NCBI GenBank assembly: GCA_951406725.2
Contig: OX597821.1
Span: 92,442,001 to 92,506,000 of the forward strand
Origin: Octopus vulgaris
Lineage: Eukaryota
Direction of reading: 5' to 3'
DNA: 64,000 nucleotides
The notes beneath the pieces are model-generated. The model ran no database searches. It saw nothing but the letters and a program-made list of their open reading frames with translations, and was not told the DNA's origin. This document shows, in pieces, positions 23,400 to 29,072 of the stretch (positions are counted from its first letter, which is position 1; every line of letters starts with the position of its first letter). A program made the position numbers and the translations under genes.

Positions 23400-23450
<51 letters not shown>

Positions 23451-23514
23451 TCCCGGGTTGATACGGGGTTAACCACAGTAAGTAAGGTACTCAATACATA
23501 GCAGAGTAAAATTA

Positions 23515-23952
23515 ATTTATTATATAGAAGGAGCTTCTACAGGACTAGTACTGTTTCATTCAAGAGAAATCTTCAGGAAGCTATTTAACAAGAATTGTAT
23601 TAGCATTTATACATTTAGAGGAGTGGTGGTGGGGGACTTTTTGGGGGTAGGCATAGCGCAAAATATCATACTTGGGGGAGTGGTCAAGGTAATAAAAAAA
23701 TAAAAAAAAAAAAATAAAAAATAAAAGGATAAAATAAAAGAATAAAAATAAAAAATATAAAAAATATAAAAAATATAAAAAATATATAAAAAAATATATA
23801 TATAAAAAAATATATATATAAAAATATATATATATAAAATATATATATAAAAAAAGGGGGATAGAGTTATAGGTAAATAAGGAGATTCTCACTTATACCT
23901 ATACACACATGTATACGTATCTACACACACATACGCACATACACATATATCT

Positions 23953-24013
<61 letters not shown>

Positions 24014-24472
24014 CCTACACATACACACATACATACATACAAATATACATATACATATATATATATACAGTCCAATACAGGCCCATTCCCTAATTTTAAT
24101 TTTATTATCTTCATTTATTACTTTTGTTATCTTTGATCGCTAGGGCTAAGAATCCTGGCAATAGCTGCTTGTCCGTTTGTCTGTCTACTAGAAGGCAAGT
24201 ACTCATTCCCGCACGCACACTCATTAGCACGTACATTCACCCATTCGTACACTCATACACATACACGTACGCACGCGTTATATTCATACATACAAACATC
24301 TACATACGTTCACGTATATACACATACGTACTCGTACCTACAGATTCGTGTCTACACTTTAGGAGGCTAGTCTATACATATACACCAATAAATATACATA
24401 TATATATATATATATATATACCCGCATATACATACACACACACACATATATACTCCTACATACAGATACATA

Positions 24473-24522
<50 letters not shown>

Positions 24523-24710
24523 TACACATACCTACACATACACACATACACATACACACACATACATACACATATATATACATACACAAACATATATACA
24601 CACACATATATATACATACACACATACACACATACATACGTATACATACATACATACATCTATACATCCATACTTACATGCATTTATACGCATACACACA
24701 CCCATCTATA

Positions 24711-24744
<34 letters not shown>

Positions 24745-25018
24745 ACACACTCACACATACATATACAAATCTACGCACACACATACATACATACACGTAT
24801 ACGCATACACGCACATACACATATACATGCGTACCCATACACGTGCACACACGCACGCGCATCCATATAAATACACACACACACATATATATATACACGT
24901 GTGCGAGCATACATACATACTCATACGCGCACACATACTTACAAATACATATATGCACACACTTACACACATATATATACATACACATATACATGCATAC
25001 ATACATATATGCATACAT

Positions 25019-25093
<75 letters not shown>

Positions 25094-25470
25094 TATACAT
25101 ACATAGACATACATACACATACATACACATACACATACGTACACACACATATACACATATATATATATACATATATATATATATACACATACACGCATAC
25201 ATATATACACATATACATACATATACATACACACACACATACATATATACATATACACTGATACACATACCCATACATACACATGCATATACTTATATTA
25301 CTACATACTCACATATATAGACATATATACATATACACACATACATATATACATGTACATACACATACGCATGCATATATATATATATATACACACACAT
25401 ATATATACACATACATATATATATATATATATATACACATACGTACACACACACACACACATACATATAC
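23515..25470 (-). repeat. Left arm of ~1.95-kb inverted repeat (inverted pseudo-LTR)
   Basis: Reverse complement of 27104-29072. Mirror-image ORFs 24124+ / 28457- (MLSLIARAKNPG...) and 23892- / 28688+ ([12 protein letters not shown]...). Differences are mostly in microsatellite length. Confidence 0.95.
23532..23582 (-). ncRNA. Type I hammerhead ribozyme (identical copy on the minus strand)
   Basis: Exact reverse complement of 29005-29055; predicted cut between 23538 and 23537. Confidence 0.88.
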
Positions 25471-26147
25471 CCTATAACCCCCCCTTCAACCGTGAGGTCG
25501 CTACACCTGTAGCTAAGATCTTTTTCACTCTCCTACAGAAACACTTCCCCACCCAACATAAGTACTACACTATCCTAAATAAGAACACTATTAGACTCTC
25601 CTACTCTACCACGCCCAACCTAGCCAGGAACTTAGCCAACAACAATGTGAAAAAACTTAACATATCTACTTTCTCCGGGGCCCATCCAACGTCCGATAGC
25701 AATTGCAACTGCCATGATAAAACCACCTGCCCCCTCAACAACAACTGCCTACAGAGGGACCTAGTATATAAATGCGAGGTAAGATCAGGCCTTGACGATA
25801 AAAGTAAATCCTACATTGGAATGACGTCAAACAGCTTTAAGACCCGCTGGTATGCACATACACACTCGTTCCGGCGACAGGATAAATCCAACCAAACTAC
25901 CCTCGCCGCCCACATCTGGTACCTTAAAAGGAACTCAATCCCCTTCAAGACCAAGTGGAAACTACTACAGAAGGCGCGCTCGTACACAGGAGGACATACC
26001 TGCTGTGACCTATGCATATCAGAGAGCCTAGAGATCTTGTTCGCCAAAGGCCCTCTCCTTAACAAATTTTCAGAACACTCCCCAAACTGTATGCATAAGA
26101 AGTACGCGAACTACAAGAACTATAGACCTACCCGGCAACCTGATTGA
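25470..26147 (+). CDS. C-terminal part of a PLE polyprotein: post-RT linker plus GIY-YIG endonuclease (5'-truncated, no start codon of its own)
   Basis: Uninterrupted 225 codons: [11 protein letters not shown]...KHFP...[14 protein letters not shown] linker, [18 protein letters not shown]-x14-[36 protein letters not shown]. The first 39 aa of track ORF 25353..26147 are microsatellite from the inverted arm. Confidence 0.9.
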
Positions 26148-26813
26148 TGACAACCCCCCTACAACCCCCCCCAACCCCACTGTTCCCCTAGCACCCCCGA
26201 TTACCTTTTCTCCTAAGACCTTTCACATATTATATGTGCACGCTTGTATATGTGTATCGTATGTATGTATGTATATATGTATAGAAATGCATGGGTACAG
26301 TAGGAATATACGCATGTATTATGTGTGTGTGTGTGTATGTATGCATGTAAAAAAATATATATGTATATATATTTGCATGTATATATATATATATATATAT
26401 GTGTATATATATGTGTATATATATGTATATATATATATGTATGTGCTTGTATGTGTGTGTGTGTGTATATGTGTATATGTGTTTGTATGTATATGTGTAT
26501 ATATGTATATGCATATGTATGTGTAAATGTATGTGCTTATGTATGTGTATGTATGTATAAAATATTATATAATTAGGGCTTAGGAAAATAAAATAAATTA
26601 CTTTGCCACATACTAAACTTTCTAGAAATAGCAGCCAATAAAGTTTTTTAGCCTCTTCCACTACTTAGAGAATTTTTTTCCCTCTAACATTGTTTACTCA
26701 AAATAATAATGGTCCCTTTACATACTGAACACTTGATGAAATTGATTAATAACTAATTAACTTTACCCTCCCTTGTTGATATATATATACATATGTATAT
26801 GTGTACATGTATG

Positions 26814-26852
<39 letters not shown>

Positions 26853-27103
26853 ATGTGTGTATGTATGTATTTGTATATGTGTGTGTGTATATGTATGTGT
26901 GCGCGTGTGTGTGTATGTTTGTGTATGTATACTTGTATATGTATATGCATGAATGTATATATATGTGTGTGTATATGTGTATTATGTTTGTATTTATATA
27001 GATATGTAGTTTATATATATATATATGTATGTATATGCATCTGTCTGTGTGTGTGTATGTGTATATATGCGTATCATTTTTGCGTATGTATACATGTATA
27101 TGT

Positions 27104-27478
27104 GTATATGTATGTGTGTGTGTGTGTGTACGTATGTATATATATATATATATATATGTATGTGTATATATATGTGTGTGTATATATATATATATATGCA
27201 TGCGTATGTGTATGTACATGTATATATGTATGTGTGTATATGTATATATGTCTATATATGTGAGTATGTAGTAATATAAGTATATGCATGTGTATGTATG
27301 GGTATGTGTATCAGTGTATATGTATATATGTATGTGTGTGTGTATGTATATGTATGTATATGTGTATATATGTATGCGTGTATGTGTATATATATATATA
27401 TGTATATATATATATGTGTATATGTGTGTGTACGTATGTGTATGTGTATGTATGTGTATGTATGTCTATGTATGTATA

Positions 27479-27542
<64 letters not shown>

Positions 27543-27821
27543 TGCGTGTGTGTATGTATGCATATATGTATGTATGCATGTATATGTGTATGTATATATA
27601 TGTGTGTAAGTGTGTGCATATATGTATTTGTAAGTATGTGTGCGCGTATGAGTATGTATGTATGCTCGCACACGTGTATATATATATGTGTGTGTGTGTA
27701 TTTATATGGATGCGCGTGCGTGTGTGCACGTGTATGGGTACGCATGTATATGTGTATGTGCGTGTATGCGTATACGTGTATGTATGTATGTGTGTGCGTA
27801 GATTTGTATATGTATGTGTGA

Positions 27822-27866
<45 letters not shown>

Positions 27867-28054
27867 TGGGTGTGTGTATGCGTATAAATGCATGTAAGTA
27901 TGGATGTATAGATGTATGTATGTATGTATACGTATGTATGTGTGTATGTGTGTATGTATATATATGTGTGTGTATATATGTTTGTGTATGTATATATATG
28001 TGTATGTATGTGTGTGTATGTGTATGTGTGTATGTGTAGGTATGTGTATATATG

Positions 28055-28108
<54 letters not shown>

Positions 28109-28566
28109 TATGTATCTGTATGTAGGAGTATATATGTGTGTGTGTGTATGTATATGCGGGTATATATATATATATATATATATGTATATTTATTGGTGTA
28201 TATGTATAGACTAGCCTCCTAAAGTGTAGACACGAATCTGTAGGTACGAGTACGTATGTGTATATACGTGAACGTATGTAGATGTTTGTATGTATGAATA
28301 TAACGCGTGCGTACGTGTATGTGTATGAGTGTACGAATGGGTGAATGTACGTGCTAATGAGTGTGCGTGCGGGAATGAGTACTTGCCTTCTAGTAGACAG
28401 ACAAACGGACAAGCAGCTATTGCCAGGATTCTTAGCCCTAGCGATCAAAGATAACAAAAGTAATAAATGAAGATAATAAAATTAAAATTAGGAATGGGCC
28501 TGTATTGGACTGTATATATATATATGTATATGTATATTTGTATGTATGTATGTGTGTATGTGTAGG

Positions 28567-28627
<61 letters not shown>

Positions 28628-29072
28628 AGATATATGTGTATGTGCGTATGTGTGTGTAGATACGTATACATGTGTGTATAGGTATAAGTGAGAATCTCCT
28701 TATTTACCTATAACTCTATCCCCCCTTTTTTTATATATATATTTTATATATATATTTTTTATATATATATTTTTTTTATATATATATTTTTTTATATATA
28801 TTTTTTATATTTTTTATATTTTTTATATTTTTTATTTTTATTCTTTTATTTTATCCTTTTATTTTTTTATTTTTTTATTTTTTTATTTTTTTATTACCTT
28901 GACCACTCCCCCTAAGTATGATATTTTGCGCTATGCCTACCCCCAAAAAGTCCCCCACCACCACTCCTCTAAATGTATAAATGCTAATACAATTCTTGTT
29001 AAATAGCTTCCTGAAGATTTCTCTTGAATGAAACAGTACTAGTCCTGTAGAAGCTCCTTCTATATAATAAAT
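27104..29072 (+). repeat. Right arm of ~1.95-kb inverted repeat (3' pseudo-LTR)
   Basis: Reverse complement of 23515-25470; ends ...ccttctatataataaat and runs into (AT)n/(GATA)n. Confidence 0.95.
29005..29055 (+). ncRNA. Type I hammerhead ribozyme
   Basis: AGCTTC-CTGAAGA-TTTCTCTTGAAT-GAAA-CAGTACTAGTCCTG-TA-GAAGCT. 6-bp stem I, CUGANGA core, short stem II (TTC/GAA), GAAA, stem III ACAG/CTGT, GUA cleavage triplet (cut after 29049). Confidence 0.88.

Follow-up and report, generated by a model that had tools for sequence, protein, structure and literature searches.

The window analysed here is a 64,000-nucleotide stretch of the Octopus vulgaris genome (GenBank assembly GCA_951406725.2, contig OX597821.1, positions 92,442,001 to 92,506,000 of the forward strand), and all positions below are numbered within it. 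At 23442-29072, on contig C8 of the 2.8-Gb genome, it contains a 5'-truncated insertion of a Penelope-like element (PLE) of the Hydra clade. With a probability of about 0.6, we read this insertion as the product of two cDNAs that were primed 73 nt apart on one RNA, ran off at its cap and jumped to its 3' end. This reading builds on features directly observed in the family: clade membership, truncation, two fixed ends (sites A and B), a single tail per insertion, a pile-up of arm ends at the first base of a hammerhead motif, an extra G at that point, a TATA box at -29, and junctions that join the start base to downstream positions. As a locus it is unremarkable debris from a clade already known; the family, however, is so young and numerous that its mechanism can be read from failed copies.

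The insertion is bounded on the left by a (TA)n target tract (23129-23445, from the sequence and Tandem Repeats Finder, TRF). It opens with a 73-nt tail on the minus strand (23442-23514), located by BLAST against the natural full copy L035. The tail ends at priming site B (...CTACATAT) and is the reverse complement of the first 73 nt of the element's 5' untranslated region (UTR). The tail is present at the left end only, and its final ATAT is common to tail and target. The inverted arm (23515-25470, minus strand) follows and holds the 3'-terminal 1.96 kb of the element, reaching back from site A into a 3' UTR rich in microsatellites; it includes a type I hammerhead motif (23532-23582), with a putative transcription start at 23582, and a TATA box (23604-23611) that begins 29 nt upstream of that start. 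Beyond two untemplated C at the head-to-head junction (25471-25472), the plus strand carries the last 224 codons (490-713) of an open reading frame (ORF) for a reverse transcriptase and endonuclease (RT and EN), from Tyr490 at 25473 to the stop codon at 26145-26147. These codons encode the end of the RT thumb, a CxCx5C linker and a GIY-YIG domain without CCHH. The 2.9-kb 3' UTR (26148-29072, plus strand) includes the right arm (27102-29072). About 59% of this 3' UTR is alternating purine-pyrimidine microsatellite, with 15 runs of (TA)6 or longer, so that every long copy brings in fresh target sites for the family. A TATA box (TATAAATG; 28976-28983, plus strand) begins 29 nt ahead of the point where the second type I hammerhead motif starts (29005-29055, plus strand); its stem I starts at 29005, the putative capped start, and its core at 29011, with the predicted cut after A29049. 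The copy ends, on its tail-free side, at priming site A (29056-29072, plus strand; ...TATATAATAAAT), where the right (TA)n/(GATA)n flank begins (29073-29161, sequence and TRF).

Local alignment of the two arms, extended 6 nt beyond the junction, gave 1951 matches, 6 mismatches and 12 gap events (a likeness of about 98.5%), and the differing positions were nearly all in microsatellite or homopolymer runs; the arms are separated by a 1631-nt spacer. An earlier note on this DNA had described near-identical inverted arms, (TA)n on both flanks and a hammerhead at each outer end, all of which were found, the motifs lying at 29005-29055 (plus) and 23582-23532 (minus) in the Hydra layout; its boundary at 27104 instead of 27102 reflects microsatellite ambiguity. 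The spacer, described there as starting exactly with an uninterrupted ORF, opens with the two untemplated C, followed by the open frame; at the junction this frame lacks a start codon.

To place the element, we compared the window ORF with other copies, which run on into RT sequence upstream of the match, as the earlier note had proposed to check 5' of 25470. Full RT and EN ORFs exist in the genome; the natural full copy L035 encodes a protein of 713 amino acids (aa), with RT followed by GIY-YIG, in a unit of about 5.4 kb. The best 150 genome matches to the window ORF were all 94-100% identical, an exact 27-mer of the EN occurred 202 times, and over 673 nt of the EN region one other copy was 100% identical and most were more than 99% identical. 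These near-identical copies, together with the full ORFs elsewhere, support the earlier view of a recent insertion of a 5'-truncated PLE with an inverted 3' copy. The family protein has the motifs RWR, DKT, YRDD and CxCx5C and lacks CCHH, and its catalytic E and N are surrounded by CxxC and CxH; C82, C88, C180, C183, E186, N199, C208 and H210 were invariant in 52 sequences. Its RIRWR and PSDKTK (protein P0002) agree with the RWK and DKG-to-DKT signature of the Hydra clade. In a fold search, the full protein best matched TERT (E 3e-8), and the EN part matched T4 EndoII best (E 0.058, probability 0.95) and also Hpy188I, both weakly; both are GIY-YIG enzymes. These matches agree with the GIY-YIG assignment made from the sequence. 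The Pfam GIY-YIG model matched 4 of the 52 homologues and missed the family protein, Pfam searches with the query proteins returned a spurious VtrA_C, to which the full protein added a weak PEX6_N match, and a PDB sequence search gave weak RT matches only (E 0.23). Apart from two short fragments at 90-99%, the nearest proteins were 44-53% identical over most of the length.

By its motifs, with named references compared by eye, the element belongs to the Hydra clade, of which it is a candidate new member. It has the features of EN-bearing PLEs: RT followed by a C-terminal GIY-YIG, pseudo-long terminal repeats (pseudo-LTRs) in partial tandem or inverted arrangement, a one-sided tail and a type I hammerhead. 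With the Hydra clade, as its available description has it (PMC8557442), it shares RWK-like and DKT motifs, CxCx5C, absence of CCHH, insertion into (TA)n, a type I hammerhead of the form CTGA(A/T)GAT...TGAA, an inverted 5'-truncated copy and a one-sided tail. It differs in its length, about 5.4 kb with a 3.1-kb microsatellite 3' UTR against generally less than 3 kb, a departure that is due to that 3' UTR and from a tendency that is described, not diagnostic. Its tail measures 73 nt against 30-40, and its hammerhead and protein, compared by eye, differ from those of Hydra-1_Obim (PMC8557442, in the part available). For the possibly uncharacterised family that the earlier note suggested, the clade can be named as Hydra. 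The architecture is already published, in Fig. 2 of Craig 2021, and a 5'-truncated copy in inverted orientation is also described for the Hydra family Penelope-13_HM (PMC8557442, same part). A paper on octopus repeats reports 31 Penelope-like families with recent activity.

Copies of the family ended at one of two fixed sites, A (...TAAAT), right after the hammerhead, or B, 73 nt further, and insertions consisted of two outward-facing arms. We examined 41 EN-bearing loci, of which 7 had no inverted arm and 5 had an end that was out of view or lost. The tail was on the inverted arm in 17 of the 29 scored loci, on the sense arm in 10, on neither in 2 and on both in none; thus, exactly one end was tailed in 27 of the 29 (p 7e-7). 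The same pattern was observed in a non-random, tail-anchored sample (the first 90 sites of contig C1, from 4424 exact tail matches), in which the far arm was visible at 74 of the 90 sites and tail-free at 72 of these. Loose (TA)n ends at site B were present in the public contigs of 4 out of 4 runs. Moreover, the nearest neighbour of an inverted arm was its own partner in 18 out of 23 loci (30 loci, 7 of which had arms too short to compare). This likeness, together with the private array junctions described below, which occur in both orientations, shows a single RNA species, and both arms are likely to derive from one RNA molecule.

A 32-mer of the hammerhead matched 7648 times in the genome, against only 2922 matches for a motif that lies some 100 nt upstream of A; the two patterns covered subfamilies unequally. 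Exact head-to-head mini-palindromes numbered 1716 genome-wide, and 55 of the 90 tail-anchored insertions (about 60%) were shorter than 400 bp and were short hammerhead palindromes. In 51 parsed mini-palindromes, 70 of the 102 arms ended 62-70 nt from A and only 6 at 71-90 nt. The same junctions recurred in different subfamilies, which indicates that they are made afresh each time. Two other explanations for the mini-palindromes were rejected: multiplication of a single master as a miniature inverted-repeat transposable element (MITE) with terminal inverted repeats, as junctions vary and recur across subfamily backgrounds, and an origin of the hotspot from palindromic microhomology by itself, which is ruled out by the distribution of arm ends. 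In two mini-palindromes (L152 and L193), 70-170 nt of unrelated or rearranged sequence had been captured at the junction, beside the putative start base.

Solo arms joined to (AT)n and stopping at the hammerhead start were found 147 times, versus 4 times for arms about 20 nt longer, the latter searched in two subfamilies only. The first 100 of the 147 matches represented 83 distinct sites; among the junctions starting with AGCTTC, the base at -1 was G in 33 out of 50 (T in 7, C in 6 and A in 4). This G is absent from both element and target, and occurred in 0 out of 18 starts at the hammerhead cut site. Twenty loci were fetched for it, and 18 of them were solo stubs, divided equally between ends at A (9) and at B (9) and spanning at least 4 subfamily backgrounds. 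An extra G of this kind is reported as a mark of a copied cap in the accessible part of PMC4038843. Upstream of the same base, TATAAAT began at -29 in 120 out of 136 contexts; no other spacing occurred, and the intervening bases varied. From the end pile-up, the untemplated G and the fixed TATA box, we infer that a capped RNA polymerase II transcript begins with the first base of stem I (window positions 29005 and 23582).

Other copies continued past this point. The start base was joined to a downstream RNA position in 7 loci (L206, L208, L209, L224, L225, L232 and L239), with 8 junctions, 6 of which had G at -1; the two junctions of L239 differed by 3 nt. Repeats or jumps from the predicted hammerhead cut site were found in 3 loci (L240, L243 and L248). 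Read-on from the tail into the 5' UTR was detected in 107 exact matches, most of them in three arrays. We measured 34 read-through sites, 5 of which had no hammerhead; in the 29 copies scored for the length of the upstream pseudo-LTR, 9 halted again at 60-68 nt and 19 reached or passed the TATA box. Jumps and read-through copies thus show that copying crosses from the 5' end to a 3' end and can rebuild the promoter. The three tandem arrays (L236, G000:C2:64.628 Mb; L237, C5:37.48 Mb; L238, C8:91.475 Mb) had units of 277, 333 and 271 bp, composed of hammerhead, tail and ORF start. Each had one private junction present in both orientations (8 + 6, 4 + 20 and 26 + 5 copies), with a minus array facing a plus array and outer ends at sites B and A. 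Apparently, these retrozyme-like arrays were born within one insertion.

Overall, these observations can be arranged in the following scheme. Polymerase II would start at the A of AGCUUC, so that the element RNA would run cap, hammerhead, A, B, ORF, 3' UTR, TATA box, hammerhead, an order resembling the R-U5-body-U3-R of an LTR element. A dimeric RT-EN would nick both strands of (TA)n, and the two 3' ends would prime at A and B near the RNA 5' end, giving cDNAs that extend 68 and 141 nt to the cap. A halt at the cap would leave a 200-bp palindrome or a solo stub, whereas transfer to the 3' hammerhead copy would allow the cDNAs to continue into the 3' UTR and ORF. For the window, the cDNAs would have reached about 2.0 and 3.6 kb, short of the RT, before head-to-head end joining. 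A second pass beyond the cap would restore the upstream TATA box and thereby create a new master copy. Under this scheme, the RNA should begin with a cap at AGCUUC, the run-off cDNAs should measure 68 and 141 nt and have C as their last base, and they should then move onto the hammerhead copy at the 3' end. Its extension to Hydra-type Penelope elements in general, as an LTR-like cycle without LTR machinery in which both strands prime, run off at a cap located on the hammerhead's first base and jump to a 3' end defined by the downstream hammerhead, is more tentative, and we put it at slightly less than an even chance. If true, the pseudo-LTR promoter would be regenerated in a single step, which would also account for partial tandems, inverted arms, one-sided tails, hammerhead palindromes of MITE type and the origin of retrozyme arrays. 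The family also shows that one retroelement can leave about 1700 palindromes of MITE-like appearance, and three retrozyme-like arrays, as by-products.

Several observations weigh against this scheme. Two of the 74 visible far arms carried a tail, and the inverted arm was closer to another locus than to its partner in 5 out of 23 cases. Concerning the G, the control ends at the cut site mostly show TA microhomology and may not be RNA ends, and arms starting one base later (GCTTC) had T at -1 in 21 out of 33. The public runs consisted of contigs, which cannot show starts, caps or cleavage; all three are putative. Four jump or array junctions (L230 and L236-L238) begin upstream of the putative start (unit 5233-5283), and some templates were therefore read-through transcripts or came from deleted donors. 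No start-base scar was found in 159 long-arm contexts; a seamless jump is therefore indistinguishable from direct priming at the downstream A/B pair. Finally, the Penelope element of Drosophila virilis resembles the octopus family in having its promoter in the pseudo-LTR and in requiring a partial tandem for transcription, but that promoter is described, in the available part of PMC2377424, as internal and TATA-less, as against the upstream TATA box proposed here, and the layout is therefore not general.

The most serious competing explanation keeps the same element and double priming, with long arms primed directly at the downstream A/B pair on uncleaved read-through or circular RNA, mini-palindromes made from the upstream pair or from short pseudo-LTR read-out transcripts, and jumps as a side path. 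The scar-free long arms agree with it, and a tail lies downstream in 10 of the 27 one-tailed copies, where it could supply both sites. Junctions within an array are identical through as many as 26 repeats, the pattern expected from a closed circle; circles have been proposed by Cervera and de la Pena, and uncleaved RNA is the main in vitro substrate of a lizard element (PMC11167929). Copying past the capped start would still be needed, however, since 19 of the 29 read-through copies reach the TATA box. Moreover, start-base jumps are directly visible, and the L239 junctions, 3 nt apart, are unlike those of a closed circle. We consider this explanation less likely than the scheme above; direct priming at the downstream pair may nevertheless coexist with jumping.

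Much less probable is an origin of the inverted arm by fold-back self-priming of one cDNA or antisense template, a model published by Arkhipova in 2013, or of the mini-palindromes by deletion from long inverted repeats. Junction palindromes such as AGCT (8 of 51 mini-palindromes) and AGGCCT (L058) would suit such an origin. Yet in the window, as in each of the three arrays, it is the shorter arm that carries the tail, so that neither arm can be a plain copy of the other and simple fold-back fails. In addition, longer palindromes at arm lengths of 35 and 38 were seldom used, with 5 of the 102 arms ending at 27-44 nt, and solo arms without an inverted partner halted at the identical base.

An assembly fold-back artefact at the window locus is very improbable: the assembly does have homopolymer errors and the window junction is known from the genome assembly alone, but the arms differ at several positions, only one has a tail, the flanks are distinct, and the same geometry, with other junctions, was observed in 29 of the 41 loci. 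The alternative raised in the earlier note, an RT-less endonuclease-plus-ribozyme unit moving in exactly this configuration, agrees with the intact EN frame and with the many genome matches having a 225-aa frame from the same start point, but those matches run upstream into RT sequence and owe their short frame to the C6 run described below, the window junction start occurred in none of the 40 fetched EN-bearing loci and query position 1 was matched by the window alone among the best 150 matches; the ORF being a fragment of RT and EN and its junction shared by no examined copy, we reject it as having next to no chance of being right.

A frameshifted subfamily that would part RT from EN was also considered and rejected. 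Its apparent basis was a run of C6 in 36 out of 48 assembly copies, whereas C7 was present at full depth in 4 out of 4 short-read runs; as the contigs of all four gave C7 and no deletion, C6 is an assembly homopolymer error. This C7 read as C6, at ORF codons 491-493 (25478-25484 in the window), hides intact ORFs in other copies.

The hammerhead motif of each arm reads AGCTTC CTGAAGAT TTC TCTT GAA TGAA ACAG TACTAGTC CTGT A GAAGCT. Its layout matches the Hydra hammerheads tabulated in File S2 of Craig 2021 (PMC8557442, as far as available), and among fetched copies common variation was confined to N7, loop II and loop III. Rfam gave no match at the gathering threshold, leaving the motif uncalled; the 150 weak matches listed out of 207 included no hammerhead and consisted instead of microsatellite-driven microRNA models. 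The fold was no better than that of shuffled sequences (z = 0.0). The junctions at the predicted cut site in L240, L243 and L248 are an indirect sign of hammerhead cleavage in vivo. Just before site A, a hairpin (UAGAAG-CUC-CUUCUA; 29046-29063) overlaps the 3' strand of stem I and, by this overlap, could hold the ribozyme off. A second hairpin precedes site B (23445-23476), with z -2.6 for the 104-nt stretch.

Among known systems, the closest parallel for priming is Poseidon_Ac (PAc) of the green anole (PMC11167929), where the tail is defined by two neighbouring internal sites at which the RT starts. There, cutting and extension involve both DNA strands, the protein is predicted to act as a dimer, and the RT passes the uncleaved hammerhead. 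Two-site priming in the octopus family fits this lizard element, and the family adds the use of a different site for each end. PAc belongs to a different clade and its start sites are non-homologous to the target, whereas A and B share 2-4 nt of AT with it. The PAc study does not contain inverted arms, use of one site per end, cap run-off or jumps, and this in vitro work (Frangieh et al. 2024) leaves later steps open (PMC11167929). The TATA box, start site and strong stop, placed here, are unplaced in the available account of the Hydra clade (PMC8557442), and regeneration of the pseudo-LTR was called unexplained by Schostak et al. 2008 (PMC2377424, in the accessible text). A search of the literature, with most subscription journals outside its reach, found no paper describing the stop-and-jump model or a capped start at the hammerhead.

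LTR retrotransposons make minus-strand strong-stop DNA, followed by a first strand transfer. The proposed cycle would resemble this in its logic only: copying would be primed close to the 5' end, run off at the cap and transfer through a terminal repeat, and the promoter would be rebuilt from the 3' end. It would differ in using no tRNA primer, RNase H, integrase or particle, the nicked target priming on both strands. Tandem hammerhead arrays related to PLE pseudo-LTRs are also known from animal non-LTR retrozymes (bioRxiv 10.64898/2026.07.22.740005, available part). In contrast to the arrays described there, the three octopus arrays, with units of 271-333 bp, are single insertions of an active family, with the family's A/B ends and head-to-head arms, which suggests birth during reverse transcription and not later local amplification. 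Short pairs of hammerheads on opposite strands have been reported in Schistosoma.

Elsewhere in the window, a transposase remnant at 44220-45163 (minus strand), which we take to be mariner-like, occupies at least two frames and has the motifs LHDNACPH and YSPDLAPMDF. A further fragment at 30677-30925 (plus strand) is presumably a Tc1/mariner-like DDE transposase. A 28-bp minisatellite with six near-perfect copies lies at 35621-35789 (98% matches, TRF), and a 218-nt repeat resembling a short interspersed nuclear element is present in five dispersed copies (5020-5237, 9000-9217, 39340-39557, 46768-46985 and 57981-58198).

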